From an uncultured Candidatus Binatia bacterium (GTDB taxonomy: Bacteria; Desulfobacterota; Binatia; UBA9968; JAJDTQ01): a stretch of 64,000 bases of DNA. Position numbers and translations under genes: made by a program. Below are positions 36,551-43,583 of the stretch, in pieces (within the stretch, counting starts at the first letter, position 1; every line of letters starts with the position of its first letter). The DNA is taken from contig OZ251459.1 in NCBI GenBank assembly GCA_965242525.1, positions 1,056,001-1,120,000 on the forward strand, read 5' to 3'. The notes under the pieces were generated by a model. It saw nothing but the letters and a program-made list of their open reading frames with translations. It had not been told where the DNA came from and ran no database searches.

Positions 36551-38059
36551 CTACTCCCCGCGGTGGATGAAGTCCGCCACCCGCTCCCCGATCATCATGC
36601 AGGTCACGTTGGTGTTGGCGTGGGTCACGGTGGGCATGATGGAGGCGTCCGCCACCCGCAGGTTGTCGATGCCGTGGACCCGCAGGCGTTCGTCCACCAC
36701 GGTCATGGGGTCGGAGGCGGGTCCCATGAGGCAGGTCCCCGCGGCGTGGTGGTAGCTGTCGAACGCGGTGCGCGCGAACCTGGCCCAGTCGTCGCCCCGG
36801 CGGGGCTGGATGGGCGGTCCGTAGTATTCGGGCATGTCCCCCGTCCGGGTCAGCAGGTCCAGGAACTCCATGGTGGCCGCCATGGCCGCGATGTCCCCCG
36901 GGTGCTCCAGCATGCGGGCGTCCACCCCCGGAAGCTCGTGGGGGTCCGCGCTCTGGAGGAACACCCGGCCGCGGTTGCGCTGCTCCAGCAGCGCCGCGGA
37001 GACGTTCAGGATCCGCCCGACGCCGTCCAGCACCGTCGGGGGCCGCATGAAGACATGGAAATCGCCGGTCTCCCGTGACGGGTCGCTCCGGGTCACCAGC
37101 CGGAAGGGCGGCACCACCCAGTCCACCTCGAAGGCGCCGCGGCCCTCGAAGCCCATGTGCAGCATGGCGTGGTCCTGGTAGTTCTCGCCCACGCCGGGGC
37201 GGTCGTGGAGCACCTCGATGCCGTGCCGCCGCAACTCCGGGGCCGGGCCGATGCCCGACAGCATCATGACGTGGGGGCTGTGGAAGGCCCCCGCGGTGAG
37301 CACCACCTCGGCCCCCTGCGCGGTCTCGCGCCGGCCGTTCCGCTCGTAGTTCACACCGGTGACGCGGTTCCCCGACAAAGACAGGGACGTCACCGGGGCG
37401 TCGGCCGCCACCGTGAGGTTGGGCCGGCCCCGGGCGGCGTCGAGGTAGGCCACGGTGGTGGACTGCCGCATGCCGTCCCTGACGTTGAAGGGCGAGGTGC
37501 AGACCCCCCACGGGTTCGGGTCGTTCAGGTCGCCTTCCGGCAGTCCGAGGCTCCGGGCCGCGTCCATGAAAGCCTGCACCGGCCGCACCGCCTCCTGGCC
37601 GAAACGGTAGGGGCGCCGGAAGTACAGGGGGCCGCCGTGGCCGTGGTCGGGGCTGTCGGGATGGTCCCGGTCGTCCTCCAGTCGCTTCAGGAAAGGCAGC
37701 ACATGCTCCCACGCCCACCCGGGGTTCCCGGCCGCGGCCCACGCGTCCATGTCGGCCCTGATGGGCCGGATGACCGACATCACGTTGACCGAGGAGCCGC
37801 CCCCCATGATCTTGCCGGCCAGGGAATAGAAGACGCTCCCGTCCAACCCGCGCCTGGTGGGGTACATGTTGACGTAGGGGGTCTCCAGCAGCAGCCGCTC
37901 CCGTTTGGACGCCTCCGCCACCACGTCGGGGATGGGCCGCGGGTCCGGCCCCGCTTCCAGCAGCAGCACTTTGCGCTTCGGGTCCTCGGAAAGCCGCGCC
38001 GCGGCCGCGCAGCCCGCGGAGCCGCCTCCCACCAGGATCACGTCGTAACCGTTCGCCAT
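36551..38059 (-). CDS. GMC family oxidoreductase (choline dehydrogenase-like)
   Basis: Motifs GGGSAG, GKIMGGGSSVN, LSGIGP, GVGENYQDH, LRVADASIMP, ANTN. Confidence 0.9.
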   Translation of the reverse strand: MANGYDVILVGGGSAGCAAAARLSEDPKRKVLLLEAGPDPRPIPDVVAEASKRERLLLETPYVNMYPTRRGLDGSVFYSLAGKIMGGGSSVNVMSVIRPIRADMDAWAAAGNPGWAWEHVLPFLKRLEDDRDHPDSPDHGHGGPLYFRRPYRFGQEAVRPVQAFMDAARSLGLPEGDLNDPNPWGVCTSPFNVRDGMRQSTTVAYLDAARGRPNLTVAADAPVTSLSLSGNRVTGVNYERNGRRETAQGAEVVLTAGAFHSPHVMMLSGIGPAPELRRHGIEVLHDRPGVGENYQDHAMLHMGFEGRGAFEVDWVVPPFRLVTRSDPSRETGDFHVFMRPPTVLDGVGRILNVSAALLEQRNRGRVFLQSADPHELPGVDARMLEHPGDIAAMAATMEFLDLLTRTGDMPEYYGPPIQPRRGDDWARFARTAFDSYHHAAGTCLMGPASDPMTVVDERLRVHGIDNLRVADASIMPTVTHANTNVTCMMIGERVADFIHRGE

Positions 38060-38199
38060 GGAATCCCCTTGCGTGGTTTCGATGCTGCGTACCCATACCA
38101 AGCCCGGCGGCGCCGTTCAAGAACGCCCGCATGCAGACCGGAAGACGAGGGCAGGGCGAGGGCGGGATGTGGGGACTGCATACGATGGGGGCCGGGCAG

Positions 38200-38344
38200 A
38201 AGCGGTTCGACGACGTTGATGAACGTCGGGAGCGGGCTCTCCTTCCGAAAGGGAGCCCGCTTTTCTTTGACCGATCCGACCGAGGCAAGCCCATGTCGAA
38301 ACAACCTTCAGGGATCATCTCCGGCTACCACGCCCACGTCTATT
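38200..38344 (+). repeat. 145-bp direct repeat, copy 1 (hairpin, terminator and first 17 codons of the dioxygenase gene)
   Basis: Matches 41492-41636 with 6 mismatches counted by eye. Confidence 0.95.
38231..38268 (+). terminator. Intrinsic terminator (duplicate copy)
   Basis: AGCGGGCTC...GAGCCCGCT followed by TTTCTTT. Confidence 0.75.
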
Positions 38345-38485: not shown

Positions 38486-38509
38486 CCCCCCCCCCCCCCC
38501 CCCCCCCCC
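38486..38509. repeat. Poly-C tract (C24)
   Basis: 24 consecutive C residues. Confidence 0.9.
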
Positions 38510-38865
38510 GATTTTCCGGAAACCTCCTAACCGTTCGATTTGCAAGGGGTTTTTTTACCCTTTCCCCTCTTATCCATCTGCCGGGCCGCTCCTTTCCGGC
38601 CCTTGTCCTGCTCCGTTCCGAACCCGGACTCCGTCCGACCTCGGGTTCCGCGCCCCGGTCCCGGCCCCAAACCCGGGCCGGACCTCTGTATTCCATTCTC
38701 AAGGGCGCCTTTCGCAACAACATACGATGGCGGTGACGCCATGAACGAAATCGGGAGGCGTCACCGTTCACCGGAACCGGAAAATCGTCGTTGGCAGTAA
38801 CGGAAAGAGACCCGCTTCATGCAGAGGTCTCGAACAAACCCAGGTATTCCGAAAAGGAGGAAACC

Positions 38866-40854
38866 ATGCATTCTGAACCCATGACGAATGATTCCGACCG
38901 CGTAGCCCCTGACCGCCGCATCCACCTCCCAAGTCCAACCCCCGTGCGGCCTCGCCGGCGCATTGCCGCGGGTGTCCTGTCCGTCCTGCTCGGCCTCTCC
39001 TGCTTCGCCGCCTCTCCGGCCTGGGCGGTCAAGCTCGGAGAAGGCGCCAATGACACGCCCTTCGTCCAGGAATACGACAACGTCGCCGCCTACATTAGCA
39101 GTCCTCCGGATGAGGCCGATCGCCTCACTTTTGTCAAGATCAGACATTTACGCACAGGCACGCTATACACCCTCAAGCACGTGGACCTGAAAGCGTTCGA
39201 TAAGGACAACACCCTGGACGAAAACACCCTGATCGAGAAGTATCCTACTTATCAGGCCTATGTTAGGGACGCCAAGAACACCACCCGACTCTATGCCTAC
39301 ATTCGGCACGCGGTGGACGGGGTGTACCGTGTGTACCGTGTCGCCGAGATCGAACAAGCGCGTAGGGATGCCCTCCCGGGCCAGTCCATACTAGCCCTTG
39401 TAGCCCCTGTAGAGGAGACCCCCGGGCGCAATACGGCCATCGGCGATGGCGCCAGCGCAACAGAGTACAGGGCCATCGCCATCGGCAATGATGCCAGCGC
39501 AACGAGCCGCGGCGCCGTCGCCATCGGTCTGCTGTCCCGGGCATCCGGTCGGAAGTCCATTGCCATAGGCGCAGACGCCAACGCCGATGCCGGGATTGCA
39601 ATGGGAAGGAACGCCCGAGCCCATGGTGGCATCGCCTTGGGCCGGTTCGCTAAAGCTGTTGGCGGTGTGTCGTTGGGCAACGGTGCTAACGCAGTCGGTG
39701 GCACGGCAGTGGGAGGCGGTTCCTGGGCAACCGGTCTCCACGGTAGTACAGCCATCGGCGGCGGCAGCAACGCCGCCGGCGAACGGAGCACCGCCCTCGG
39801 TTCGATCGCCAAGGCCGGCGGCTCGCACAGCACCGCCGTGGGCGAGGCCTCCGAGGCTCAAGGTAGCCACGCTGTCGCTGTCGGGAAAAACGCGATAGCC
39901 GGCATGAGGGTAGGAAAGAGGTACAACAACGCGGCTGATTATCTGAAAGACAGGACGACCTGGACCAGCACCACCCATACCCATGTTCGGATCGGGAACA
40001 AGGTCTATAAGGTCACCACGCTGGATGCGTTCTCAGGTCTCACCGACGACAAGCGCCCTCGCGCGACGACAGTCAACCCAGGCGGCGTCGCCGTGGGCGT
40101 AAACGCTCGGGCTACGGGCATGAACAGTATCGCCCTGGGCCGGGGCGCGTCCGCTACCGGGAACAAGGGCATCGCCATCGGTTCGGGAGTCTCGGCCGGA
40201 CAGAACAAGGTGGTCATCGGCACCGATGACCATACCTACGAGTTGCCGGGCTTGGCCAAGCACACTTCAGGGACCCGGGTGGTGATCGTGGACAAGGAGG
40301 GGAGGCTTTCCACACAGGCCGCAACCTCTTCCCCTGCTTCCCCTTCCCGGAGCGCCTCCCTGCGGGGCGCCGCAGTGCTTTCCTCCGAAGTGACCTCCCT
40401 GAACCGGGACCTCGGGACCCGGACGGACGCTTCCGACTACGAGAAGGCCCCGGCCATCGGTTCGGGTCCCGAGGCGCCGGAAACCGCAGAACAGCGGCGG
40501 GTGGTGGTGCAGGACACCAACCGGGACGGCTCGGTGCGCCTGCGCACCCTGGACTTCGGTGACCTGACGGGAATGGACCGGCGGTTGGCGGGAGTGGAGC
40601 AGCGAATGACGTCGCTCAGCGACCGGCTGAACAAGGCCACTGCCATGTCAGCGGCGTTGAGCGCGTTGCCCAACGTGGTGCCGGGGGACAACCGGTTCTT
40701 CCTCGGGGTGGGCGCGGGCCACTACAGCAGCGAGCAGGCTCTGGCCATCGGCATGAGCGCCCGGGTCGGGCGCCACGTGTTCGTGAACGCGGGAGCAGCC
40801 CTTGCCAGCGGCGACGATGCGAGCGTTCGCGGCGGCGTGGGCGTAGTCTGGTAA
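38866..40854 (+). CDS. YadA-like trimeric autotransporter adhesin
   Basis: AAGGAGG RBS; signal peptide ending AWA; many AIG/ALG/AVG head repeats; short coiled coil; anchor ..GVGAGHYSSEQALAIG..GVGVVW ending in an aromatic residue. Confidence 0.9.
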   Translation: MHSEPMTNDSDRVAPDRRIHLPSPTPVRPRRRIAAGVLSVLLGLSCFAASPAWAVKLGEGANDTPFVQEYDNVAAYISSPPDEADRLTFVKIRHLRTGTLYTLKHVDLKAFDKDNTLDENTLIEKYPTYQAYVRDAKNTTRLYAYIRHAVDGVYRVYRVAEIEQARRDALPGQSILALVAPVEETPGRNTAIGDGASATEYRAIAIGNDASATSRGAVAIGLLSRASGRKSIAIGADANADAGIAMGRNARAHGGIALGRFAKAVGGVSLGNGANAVGGTAVGGGSWATGLHGSTAIGGGSNAAGERSTALGSIAKAGGSHSTAVGEASEAQGSHAVAVGKNAIAGMRVGKRYNNAADYLKDRTTWTSTTHTHVRIGNKVYKVTTLDAFSGLTDDKRPRATTVNPGGVAVGVNARATGMNSIALGRGASATGNKGIAIGSGVSAGQNKVVIGTDDHTYELPGLAKHTSGTRVVIVDKEGRLSTQAATSSPASPSRSASLRGAAVLSSEVTSLNRDLGTRTDASDYEKAPAIGSGPEAPETAEQRRVVVQDTNRDGSVRLRTLDFGDLTGMDRRLAGVEQRMTSLSDRLNKATAMSAALSALPNVVPGDNRFFLGVGAGHYSSEQALAIGMSARVGRHVFVNAGAALASGDDASVRGGVGVVW

Positions 40855-41119: not shown

Positions 41120-41152
41120 CGCCCGCAATCGGGAAGGCCGGGATGGTTTTGC

Positions 41153-41181
41153 TTGACACGGGCTGACCGCGAGATTAGACT
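41153..41181 (+). promoter_or_regulatory. Sigma70 promoter
   Basis: TTGACA (41153-41158), 17-nt spacer, TAGACT (41176-41181). Confidence 0.75.
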
Positions 41182-41186
41182 ATCTT

Positions 41187-41560
41187 TGCTCGTTGCCGAA
41201 CGGGCAGGAGCTCGGAACCGCAGGCGGGCTCGTTCCGGGCTCGGTCATCAAAGCATCAGGAGGTGTCCGATGACGCAATCCGGTCCACCCTTCGCAAAGC
41301 GCCCGTGAACACCACGGGCAGGCTGGCTCCACGGGGTCCTGCCCAACGCGGTTTCCCGGCTGACCGTCCCAACTCGCGTGTTGGATAACACGGCGCAGCT
41401 CGCGAAAGTCCGGGGACAGGCGGCAGAGGACCACGGTTCCGGAATACCGCTCACGGCAGGGCCGATACCCGGAAGCCACAACAAGCATGAAAAGCGGTTC
41501 GACGACGTTGATGAACGTCGGGAGCGGGCTCTCCTTCCGAAAGGGAGCCCGCTTTTCTTT
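41187..41560 (+). ncRNA. Candidate large structured ncRNA or cis-regulatory leader (~375 nt), family not recognised
   Basis: Bounded by a promoter and a terminator; at least 9 nested helices found by eye, including a 5'-3' closing stem. Confidence 0.62.
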
Positions 41561-41636
41561 GACGGATCCGACCGAGGCAAGCTCATGTCGAAACAACCTT
41601 CGGAGACCATCTCCGGCTACCACGCCCATGTCTATT
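41492..41636 (+). repeat. 145-bp direct repeat, copy 2
   Basis: Matches 38200-38344. Confidence 0.95.
41523..41560 (+). terminator. Intrinsic terminator
   Basis: GC-rich stem 41524-41552 followed by TTTTCTTT. Confidence 0.8.
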
Positions 41637-41929
41637 ACGACCCGGACACGAAGCCCGTAGCGGAGCGCGTGCGCGAGGGGCTGGGCGCGCGCTTCGACGT
41701 GGTGCTGGGGCGCTGGCACGACGAACCCGTGGGACCGCACCCCCAGGCCATGTACCAAGTCACCTTCGCGCCCGAGGAGTTCGCCCGGGTGGTCCCGTGG
41801 TTGATGCTCAACCGCGAAGGTCTCGACGTGCTGGTCCACCCCAACACGGGGGAGCACGTGGGCGACCACCGGGACCGGTCCCTGTGGCTGGGCGCCAAGT
41901 TGCCGCTCAAGCTGAGCTCGTTTCGCTAA
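41585..41929 (+). CDS. DOPA 4,5-dioxygenase family protein
   Basis: Motifs YHAHVYY, PVGPHP, WLMLNR.GL.VLVHPNTG, DH...LWLG. Confidence 0.88.
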   Translation: MSKQPSETISGYHAHVYYDPDTKPVAERVREGLGARFDVVLGRWHDEPVGPHPQAMYQVTFAPEEFARVVPWLMLNREGLDVLVHPNTGEHVGDHRDRSLWLGAKLPLKLSSFR

Positions 41930-42049
41930 CTTGCTCCCTCGTCATGGCAAAGTTTGGCAAAGGGCGGCTTTGCGTCTAAAATCGTGCTTGACAACAAACA
42001 GGAAGTCCCTATGGAGCCGGTTTTCCCAAGTTTGGAAAGGAGGTGTGTC

Positions 42050-42313
42050 ATGGGTGATCCGCTTGGTAGCGAGAAGGAATATCTCAAGGCCAACAGGGAC
42101 CGGTTCATGCAGGAATACCCGGGTAAGTACCTTCTCATCAAGGGTGACCAAGTTTTTGGAGCGTTCGAGACCTATGAGGAAGGCGTGAGGGAAGGAGCGC
42201 GAGCGTTTGGGGTCGGTCCTTTTCTGGTCAGGTCCGTCTTGCAGCCTGAAGACGCCAAGGCGCCGAGCATCCCCGCGCTATCCATAGGAGTTCCCTTTAG
42301 TGCGAACACTTAA
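42050..42313 (+). CDS. Small hypothetical protein (DUF5678-like)
   Basis: AGGAGG RBS; pattern EYLKANRDRFMQEYPGKYLLIKGDQVFGAF. Confidence 0.6.
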   Translation: MGDPLGSEKEYLKANRDRFMQEYPGKYLLIKGDQVFGAFETYEEGVREGARAFGVGPFLVRSVLQPEDAKAPSIPALSIGVPFSANT

Positions 42314-42516: not shown

Positions 42517-43002
42517 TTACCCGGAATCACCCCCCTCGGACCCGGCGCCGTCCCGGGCCCGCAGCTTCGCCGCGATGAAGTCCTTGTGGGGGACGCCGAT
42601 GAGGCCGGCGATCTTTCGGACCAGGTATTCCTCGTGCTCGTCCACGCCGTGGTCGGCGAAGGCCACCGCCCACAGGTATTCCACCACCTTCTCCTTCTGC
42701 TCGGGGGAGAAGCCGGTCTTGATGAGCGACGTGAACTGGTAGTGGTCGATGGAGTCGTCGGCCTCCGCTTCGGCCAACTCCATCAACTCGCGGGTCTCGT
42801 CTTCGGTCAGGTCGAACTTGCTCCGCAGGGCGGCCAGCACCACCGCGCGCTCGTTCTCGGTGGACTCCACGTCGGACCGCATCATCTCGATGAGCAGCGC
42901 GCCCGTGGCCACTTGCAGCCGGTGGCCGTCCGACTGCCGGACGTCGCGGTGGCCCGGGTCGATGCGGCGGTCGAAGAACCGTTGGATGGCCCGGAGCATC
43001 AT
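42517..43002 (-). CDS. TerB family protein
   Basis: Motifs LQVATGALLIEM, YQFTSLI, LWAVAFAD, EEYLVRKIAGL. Confidence 0.85.
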   Translation of the reverse strand: MMLRAIQRFFDRRIDPGHRDVRQSDGHRLQVATGALLIEMMRSDVESTENERAVVLAALRSKFDLTEDETRELMELAEAEADDSIDHYQFTSLIKTGFSPEQKEKVVEYLWAVAFADHGVDEHEEYLVRKIAGLIGVPHKDFIAAKLRARDGAGSEGGDSG

Positions 43003-43583
43003 CGGCCCGACCCGTTGAGGAACCGCACCCGGTAGTCCTTCCACTTGTCCGCCGGACGGGTGATGTCGCCGGCGTAGGTGCCGAAGCGGCCCCGGCGCCG
43101 GTCCCGGAAGTAGAGCTTCAGGGTCTGCTCCACCACGGGGAAGGCGATGCGGTCCCAGGGGACGTCTTCCTCGCGGCACAGCCGGACGTCCAGGCTTTCC
43201 GGTCCGGGGCCGAACTCGCCATCCCGCATGGCGCCCCGGAACATGACATAGACCTGGTTGATCTGCGGCAGGTTGATGAGGGTGTAGAGCTCCGAGATCT
43301 CCACCGCGGCCAGGGCTTCCTCCCGGGTCTCGCGGGCGGCCCCCTCGATAGTGGTCTCGAAGTCCTCCAGGAACCCTGCGGGCAGGGTCCAGAACCCGTA
43401 GCGCGGCTCGATGGCGCGGCGGCACAGGAGGACCGCGTCGCCCCACTCCGGGATGCAGCCTACCACCACCTTGGGGTTGGTGTAGTGGACGGTGTGGCAC
43501 GACCCGCACACGTGCCGGGGCATGTTGTCCCCCTCCGGGATGCGGAGCTCCACCGGGGCGGCGCAGGCGCTACAGTAGTTCAT
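42999..43583 (-). CDS. NUDIX hydrolase with N-terminal zinc ribbon
   Basis: C..C...C..C; LCRRAIEPRYGFWTLPAGF; Nudix box GAARETREE. Confidence 0.9.
   Translation of the reverse strand: MNYCSACAAPVELRIPEGDNMPRHVCGSCHTVHYTNPKVVVGCIPEWGDAVLLCRRAIEPRYGFWTLPAGFLEDFETTIEGAARETREEALAAVEISELYTLINLPQINQVYVMFRGAMRDGEFGPGPESLDVRLCREEDVPWDRIAFPVVEQTLKLYFRDRRRGRFGTYAGDITRPADKWKDYRVRFLNGSGR

Follow-up and report, generated by a model that had tools for sequence, protein, structure and literature searches.

In an uncultured Candidatus Binatia bacterium (GTDB lineage Bacteria; Desulfobacterota; Binatia; UBA9968; JAJDTQ01), a stretch of about 375 nucleotides (nt) directly upstream of a small dioxygenase-family gene raises the question of whether it encodes a structured RNA and, if so, whether that RNA acts on its own or serves the gene behind it. 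The stretch lies in a window of 64,000 nt (GenBank assembly GCA_965242525.1, contig OZ251459.1, forward-strand positions 1,056,001 to 1,120,000; coordinates below count from the first letter of the window). The original prediction, made from the letters alone, had described an unrecognised structured RNA with its own promoter and terminator, and had left open whether it was a free-standing noncoding RNA or an attenuator, of very large size, for the DOPA-dioxygenase gene downstream. The feature is real, as a sigma-70 promoter, a structured RNA of ~375 nt and an intrinsic terminator recur together in 26 copies. We tentatively favour reading the RNA (41188-41560) as a genus-specific 5′ leader that would attenuate the gene, which belongs to the family PF08883, with read-through set by translation of a short open reading frame (mini-ORF) within the leader; the succession of promoter, Shine-Dalgarno (SD) sequence and mini-ORF set in hairpins, large invariant domain, terminator and gene is the arrangement of an attenuating leader. 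The features are as follows, all on the plus strand.

41146..41181, +, T-rich tract and sigma-70 promoter, TTGACA-17-TAGACT at 41153-41181 (10/12 matches in a consensus scan)
41190..41203, +, P1, 5′ terminal hairpin TCGTTG/GAACGG (41190-95/41198-203; 6 pairs, 97.4% paired over 26 sequences)
41208..41242, +, P2, hairpin of variable length (9 pairs, 92% paired; compensatory changes on both sides in 7)
41244..41274, +, P3, hairpin GTCATC/GATGAC (6 pairs, invariant in 26/26), with the SD in its loop and the ATG in its 3′ arm
41270..41308, +, mini-ORF, 12 codons and a TGA stop (window sequence MTQSGPPFAKRP); an ATG-started ORF in 26/26 copies
41301..41319, +, P4, hairpin (6 pairs, 100% paired), whose 5′ arm comprises codons 11-12 and whose loop carries the stop codon
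41348..41450, +, domain 2, core built of the helices H-f (41348-58/41440-50), H-a (41359-62/41421-24), H-b (41366-70/41413-17), H-c (41378-83/41386-91) and two hairpins of variable length; helices 95-100% paired
41451..41501, +, purine-rich strand (CCGGAAGCC in the window, CCGGGGAGCC in most copies) and variable A-rich linker, from the alignment of homologues (A1)
41502..41521, +, 3′ hairpin with conserved loop TGATGA (7 pairs, 95.6% paired, 2 compensatory)
41524..41560, +, intrinsic terminator, an 11-bp G+C-rich stem (41524-41534/41542-41552) followed by TTTTCTTT
41585..41929, +, PF08883 'Dopa 4,5-dioxygenase family' gene, 114 amino acids (aa), Pfam E 9.7e-35

The genome of the window holds one full copy of the element plus a 69-nt repeat of its 3′ end (BLASTN), and one copy each was found in 25 of 27 further genus members, for a genus total of 26/28. 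A covariance model of domain 2 (R1) recovered the identical 26 of 28 genomes, with 112-152 bits in each, and returned no match in 95 genomes of the other two families of the order or in 150 other genomes sampled from the phylum; run with its filters off, it found nothing in G011 and G013, the two members of the genus that lack the RNA, or in two outgroup loci (best E 0.97). An exact-pattern scan of ~185,000 species genomes yielded 21 loci, all identical to genus copies already in the set, and a metagenome scan yielded three matches that were 98.9-100% identical to known copies and added no new sequences. Within the genomes searched, the RNA family is thus limited to a single genus of uncultured Binatia. 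The 26 sequences, which are ~69-91% identical to the window copy among the homologues, could be aligned over their full length (alignment A1), and counts out of 26 below refer to this set.

Both ends of the predicted transcript withstood scrutiny. The near-consensus promoter named in the original prediction was matched by the consensus scan, which found two promoter-like sites in a 2-kb region against 0.2 expected, and is conserved, with TTGACA and TAnnnT each kept in 26/26 copies at a spacing of 17 (8 copies) or 18 (18 copies); the T-run upstream of it is present in most copies. Judged by the spacing from the -10 element, transcription would start at ~41188. The terminator was not listed by a simple terminator scan, and is seen in the minimum free energy (MFE) fold, the RNAalifold consensus and the pair counts, in which 98.6% of the cells of its 11 pairs are paired. 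The folding energy is low on both strands (MFE z-score against shuffles of -3.4 on the plus strand and -3.7 on the minus strand) and so does not identify the strand, which is given as plus by the orientation of the promoter and terminator and by frequent G-U pairs, which would turn into A-C on the opposite strand (UG in 21/26 sequences at columns 9/24; GU in 19/26 at columns 257/262).

What ties the RNA to the gene is first of all position. At the window locus and at all 25 homologous loci the PF08883 gene stands 22-104 nt 3′ of the RNA on the same strand, and the RNA was found apart from the gene at 0/26 loci, such that the linkage to dioxygenase genes, which the original prediction had proposed to check among collected homologues, holds in 26/26 copies. 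The 24 nt that separate the terminator's T-tract from the ATG of the gene gave no second promoter in a simple scan. The gene itself is present in 119/123 genomes of the order, a tally that includes three genomes flagged as unpublished (G098, G059 and G079), as does the count of 0/95 above if they are among those 95, and at 16 outgroup loci its upstream regions are unrelated and mostly short. These comparisons indicate that the gene is old and near-universal in the order and that the RNA is a genus-specific addition. The longer open frame that extends the dioxygenase frame upstream in the window (206 aa) was considered as a coding alternative and rejected, as it is not conserved and measures 117-207 aa in relatives. 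The nearest structures of the protein in the PDB, 2peb and 2nyh, are named only as 'putative dioxygenase'.

The two genomes without the RNA are informative in this regard. In G011 (locus L102, ~1400-1503), ~330 nt are deleted, and the SD and ATG of the gene directly abut what is left of the element, namely the same promoter together with P1 and P2's 5′ half. This fusion identifies the promoter of the RNA as the dioxygenase promoter, shared between the two, and the RNA as the gene's 5′ leader. A tree of the dioxygenase gene nests G011 among RNA-bearing species (support 97/92), and its lack of the RNA is therefore a secondary loss. G013 (locus L115, reverse strand, ~1230-1490), which has a smaller genome, has a promoter-like site (TCGACA-17-TAGATT) with ~250 nt of unrelated leader behind it, and appears nested as well, but on a long branch. 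The nesting of both indicates that the RNA was present in the ancestor of the genus, in which the leader would have arisen, and was since lost or replaced twice.

Selection on the RNA as a folded molecule was assessed by counting pairs across the alignment. The refined model comprises 71 pairs, of which 97.2% of cells are paired as opposed to 38-45% when the partners are slid, a control that flatters the model since the refined structure was derived from the same alignment; ten pairs carry compensatory changes, a number reached by 0/500 shuffles. Covariation is strongest in P2, and an all-against-all helix scan detected strong covariation there only. In domain 2, the two variable hairpins differ between species in both length and sequence and still fold in nearly all 26 copies, and this retention of pairing through length changes is good evidence of selection at the level of RNA. 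The remainder of the domain is built of invariant junctions with variable hairpin tips; its core helices hardly vary and covary weakly, and a 28-nt block (41357-41384; columns 231-258 of A1) is invariant but for three positions. The TGATGA loop of the hairpin just before the terminator bears a possible resemblance to a C-box or kink-turn-type motif.

Most of the helices that had been drawn by eye survive in this model. Over the 26 homologues, the AGCTCGGAAC/GTTCCGGGCT helix is paired in 84% of cells with compensatory changes at 8 pairs, GTCATC/GATGAC is invariant and 100% paired, and GCCCGTG/CACGGGC (93%), GTCCC/GGGAC (95%), CGTGTT/AACACG (85%) and the CGACGTT/AACGTCG 3′ hairpin (91%) are well paired and mostly invariant. 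GGTTTCC/GGAAGCC is retained in 87.5% of cells, though with no compensatory change, and GGGCAGG/CCTGCCC (72%) and CCGGTC/GGCTGG (74%) are weak. The outer closing stem (41187-95/41479-87) has to be given up, as it is paired in only 44.6% of cells and the 5′ end makes a local hairpin instead, and so does the CGGT/ACCG helix at 52.9%.

The original prediction had also seen no credible coding sequence in the region. This holds for long frames, none of which is conserved across the region, and fails for a 12-codon ORF with a perfect SD that is kept in 26/26 copies and whose conservation changes the likely mechanism. The 8-nt SD, AGGAGGTG, occupies 41258-41265 in the loop of P3, with the ATG 4 nt later at 41270; it is the full complement to the usual anti-SD, and its GGAGGT core, 7 nt ahead of the ATG, is invariant (26/26). 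The pattern GGAGGTG-N4-8-ATG occurs three times in the window against an expectation of 0.70. The encoded peptide follows the consensus M-T-x-x-x-P-P-D-x-x-R-P, in which three of 12 codons are for proline, with Phe at position 8 in the copies of the window and of its nearest relative, and measures 12 aa in 20 copies, 13 aa in four, 16 aa in one and 30 aa in one. Its 39 columns align without a gap in all 26 sequences. The codons for T2, P6 and P7 vary only synonymously at the third position, with zero such codons in the other two frames, and these are substitutions of the coding type. The stop is kept as TGA, TAG or TAA and falls in the loop of P4 in 24/26 copies, and 20/26 copies end in R-P-stop, 19 of them with UGA. 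Taken together, these features argue modestly but coherently for translation of the mini-ORF. A search of 401 genomes sampled from the phylum with a degenerate pattern of the SD and an Asp8 mini-ORF gave no match, and by design missed the sole member of the genus in that sample, G000, the genome of the window, which has Phe8. Pro-stop and XPPX contexts can stall ribosomes, and the P-P-[D/F] and R-P-stop of the mini-ORF are candidate stalling motifs on the basis of their residues. That consecutive prolines stall ribosomes is stated in PMC6460261.

No known RNA family accounts for the element. The covariance search against Rfam suggested by the original prediction found no family at its gathering score anywhere in the window (Rfam 15), and relaxing the threshold to E<=10 produced eight matches, all sub-threshold, the best of which reached 18.6 bits against a cut-off of 50 and covered the terminator only. 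Every Rfam 15 family was set aside on this ground, including RNase P RNA, transfer-messenger RNA (tmRNA), signal recognition particle (SRP) RNA, 6S RNA, the riboswitches and OLE, GOLLD, HEARO, ROOL and raiA. ARAGORN found neither a tRNA nor a tmRNA. The housekeeping RNAs of the genome lie at other loci, each above its cut-off, namely RNase P RNA at C1:2480193 (293.9 bits), tmRNA at C1:2514958 (189.4 bits) and SRP RNA at C1:1305323 (70.6 bits), which removes them as candidates; the alpha-type tmRNA model had no match in this genome. 6S RNA is broadly distributed across bacterial phylogeny and folds into a rod of ~185 nt with a central bubble, and it was likewise rejected, as the element is confined to one genus and its consensus fold is multi-hairpin and multi-junction and not a rod. 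The Rfam 6S model had no match anywhere in the 99%-complete genome G000, a result to be read with the insensitivity of the model, which rings in 5/14 control genomes; a divergent 6S RNA may exist unrecognised in G000. In the literature, a search of articles found no work on noncoding RNA of Binatia, no RNA element appeared among the titles and abstract openings listed for Binatota or Binatia, and those listed for DOPA dioxygenase with riboswitch concerned biosensors and engineering only, and were judged irrelevant from those titles and openings. The claim that the RNA is unrecognised and structured, with its own promoter and terminator, stands on the Rfam result, the promoter scan, the consensus fold and the pair counts.

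Under the attenuating-leader reading, the strong, conserved sigma-70 promoter would start transcription near 41188 and most transcripts would end at the intrinsic terminator (41524-41560), yielding a stable structured RNA of ~375 nt, with the gene carried by read-through transcripts only. Ribosomes would load on the SD in the P3 loop and translate the 12 codons, and doing so would require them to melt P3, which holds the start codon, and P4, which holds the last two codons and the stop. The speed of the ribosome past Pro-Pro-Asp and its release at Arg-Pro-stop could then set the folding of domain 1 and of the invariant domain 2 behind the polymerase, and the resulting fold could set the fraction of polymerases that pass the terminator. 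That speed might depend on prolyl-tRNA or EF-P status or on a ligand acting on the nascent peptide, and domain 2 would be the structure that transmits this signal or adds one of its own. The proline mini-ORF and the invariant structured domain would be two components of one leader.

Several observations weigh against this reading. No conserved antiterminator emerged from thermodynamic folding, as the partner of the terminator's 5′ strand in the MFE folds differs among the 26 sequences whether or not the mini-ORF is masked; in transcripts cut before the 3′ strand, that partner is P2 in 9/26, the linker in 6-10, the 5′ end in 4-5 and other segments in the rest. Three candidate pairings, 41348-58/41440-50, 41350-57/41470-77 and 41470-77 with the terminator's 5′ strand, are compatible with most sequences and show no compensatory change, and the switch put forward in the original prediction, in which AAGCGGTTC (41492-500) pairs with the terminator's 3′ strand, is situated in the non-conserved linker. 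The stop codon of the mini-ORF lies ~215 nt before the terminator, far for direct coupling between ribosome and terminator. The coding signal comes from three codons in closely related genomes, the end of the peptide is variable (the 13-, 16- and 30-aa forms), Phe stands in place of Asp8 both in the window and in the relative closest to it, and one copy has Cys for Arg11. The pairing statistics share in this, through the flattering slid control mentioned above and because an element found at a single locus in one genus affords little power to detect covariation, with P2 alone covarying strongly. Assembly of reads from one run guessed to be RNA (type unconfirmed) produced a single 204-nt contig on 41289-41491 at ~95% identity, from which nothing was concluded.

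With no antiterminator found, two other accounts remain substantial. One, which we consider rather unlikely though the stronger of the two, is a free-standing, abundant RNA that acts in trans, perhaps with a dual function through the 12-aa peptide, whose promoter is merely shared with a gene fed by leaky read-through. A near-consensus promoter kept in 26/26 copies and preceded in most by a T-tract, together with a strong terminator and no detectable antiterminator, are what such an RNA would present; the 28-nt near-invariant block of domain 2, among genomes that are ~70-77% identical overall, is typical of a protein- or RNA-binding surface, and the gene is intact after loss of the RNA in G011 and G013. 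Some stable RNAs are also co-transcribed with a downstream gene. Nevertheless, the RNA is present in one copy per genome and is never separate from the gene (0/26), and, as the G011 deletion makes plain, the gene is served by this promoter; on that linkage and that deletion the evidence favours the attenuator of the two readings first offered over the free-standing RNA. The mini-ORF, terminator and gene are served from one promoter, as the G011 fusion shows, with the ORF and its SD in 26/26 copies, the terminator conserved and the gene in 26/26, as an attenuator would have it. The other account, to which we assign a somewhat lower probability, is a cis-acting leader akin to a riboswitch, with read-through set by domain 2 upon binding of a small molecule or protein and with the mini-ORF as an accessory, for example in protecting the RNA or blocking Rho; the ligand might be a compound related to what the dioxygenase-family enzyme consumes or makes. 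Domain 2 forms a compact multi-helix junction with invariant joining strands and variable tips, as aptamer cores do, though its core helices covary weakly, and it stands directly 5′ of a terminator and a single enzyme gene, but the riboswitch classes known so far usually occur at several loci and in several lineages and this element occupies one locus per genome in one genus, none of the pairings tested is conserved as an expression platform, and no aptamer of Rfam matches.

Elements of these accounts could also be combined in a composite sensor of a kind not seen before, in which a 12-residue nascent peptide with Pro-Pro-Asp and Arg-Pro-stop and a 100-nt invariant RNA junction jointly gate an intrinsic terminator more than 200 nt away, the signal being either a metabolite tied to the PF08883 substrate or the translation capacity for proline, and the terminated product doubling as an abundant regulatory RNA. 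This we regard as improbable, slightly more so than a riboswitch-like leader; if true, it would be a new class of riboregulator born inside a single genus of an uncultured phylum. That there is no RNA element at all, and that the region is a decayed protein gene, a remnant of a mobile element or a housekeeping RNA missed by the models, has been largely refuted and is very improbable. The local rearrangement in the window genome (a 145-nt duplicate and a 3-kb insert) and the silence of the Rfam 6S model there could be cited for it, but indels of 1-2 nt are scattered throughout the alignment and leave no long frame conserved, on which ground a protein gene or pseudogene spanning the region was rejected; the element is single-copy, fixed in position and marked by compensatory changes; and RNase P RNA, tmRNA and SRP RNA were found elsewhere above their cut-offs, whereas a 6S RNA would not be limited to one genus.

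To return to the attenuating leader, leaders that contain a short ORF and a terminator are known as a kind, and the architecture and family found here are new and lineage-restricted. In principle the closest parallel is with the Salmonella mgtA and mgtCBR leaders, whose ORFs mgtL and mgtP contain proline codons and, according to PMC6460261, place transcription into the downstream genes under the control of EF-P and proline status. Those leaders likewise run to hundreds of nt and join a structured RNA to a very short ORF with proline codons, and the speed at which that ORF is translated, itself dependent on EF-P and proline, governs elongation into the gene. Polyproline stalling is described as altering both intrinsic and Rho-dependent termination in PMC5021804. 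The Binatia leader differs in having no sequence or Rfam relationship to the Salmonella leaders, in its 12-codon ORF with Pro-Pro-Asp and a C-terminal Arg-Pro, in an intrinsic terminator ~215 nt 3′ of that ORF, in a small dioxygenase-family gene in place of a Mg2+ transporter, and in that alternative stem-loops were not demonstrable in folds of the 26 sequences.

The trp, his, leu and pheA attenuators share the order of promoter, short leader ORF, intrinsic terminator and gene, with the ORF overlapping hairpins, and have leaders of ~150-200 nt in which an ORF with runs of cognate codons abuts overlapping 1:2/2:3/3:4 hairpins. Here, in contrast, the ORF and the terminator are ~215 nt apart, with an invariant multi-helix domain between them, the regulated gene does not belong to amino-acid biosynthesis, and the mutually exclusive antiterminator and terminator hairpins of the classical systems did not appear in thermodynamic folds of the 26 sequences. 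Nascent-peptide arrest leaders that end in Pro-stop, such as TnaC of the tna operon, may offer a further parallel, as short leader peptides in which a conserved acidic residue lies upstream and Arg-Pro comes directly before UGA; TnaC stalls at termination and regulates downstream transcription, acting through Rho. Its motif and spacing (Trp12, Asp16, Pro24) are absent from the mini-ORF, six copies of which have 1-18 codons after Pro12, and the terminator here is intrinsic. Dual-function small RNAs such as RNAIII/hld, SgrS/SgrT and SR1/SR1P likewise fold over several hundred nt, are framed by a promoter and terminator of their own and encode a small peptide, but the peptide of the Binatia RNA has just 12 aa and the RNA always lies directly before one gene that has no promoter of its own.

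The element cleanly exemplifies how an uncultured lineage, the Binatia, can harbour a large and highly conserved structured RNA that is absent from databases, and G011, in which the RNA is deleted and the promoter and gene are kept, supplies a natural control. It shows a regulatory leader gained and then lost twice within one genus, and could point to a physiological role for the PF08883 'DOPA-dioxygenase' family, which is widespread in bacteria and uncharacterised. The logic of a proline ORF plus leader known from enterobacterial Mg2+ transporter genes would extend to a distant phylum and to an intrinsic terminator, provided that mini-ORF and invariant domain work jointly. This significance is bounded by the single locus, the single genus, the lack of a cultured host and a mechanism that is inferred.

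The neighbourhood of the element in the window shows further features. A remnant duplicate of 41492-41636 lies at 38200-38344 on the plus strand (139/145 identical, with 69 nt at 100%; BLASTN) and runs from the 3′ hairpin through the terminator into codon 17 of the dioxygenase gene. The remnant adjoins the ancestral upstream neighbour, a gene for a GMC oxidoreductase (36551-38101, minus strand), and ~2.8 kb are inserted between the remnant and the intact promoter; in the closest relative, G023, the GMC gene is just 836 nt upstream and no such duplicate was matched. Between the remnant and the promoter, a run of 24 C (38486-38509) lies ~280 nt 5′ of a 687-aa ORF (38791-40854) with YadA head repeats and a YadA membrane anchor, of the trimeric autotransporter adhesin type. 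Homopolymer tracts of this sort can give phase variation; the run could also be an assembly artefact. Downstream of the dioxygenase gene, in the region 41954-42313, a second promoter-like site (TTGGCA-17-TAAAAT, 41954-41982) is followed by an ordinary ORF starting at 42050, which has an SD of the same strong form as that of the mini-ORF (GGAGGTGTGTCATG) and no Pfam match, and beyond it a 330-aa ORF on the minus strand (42517-43509) carries a TerB (tellurite-resistance protein B) domain (Pfam E 2.4e-33).

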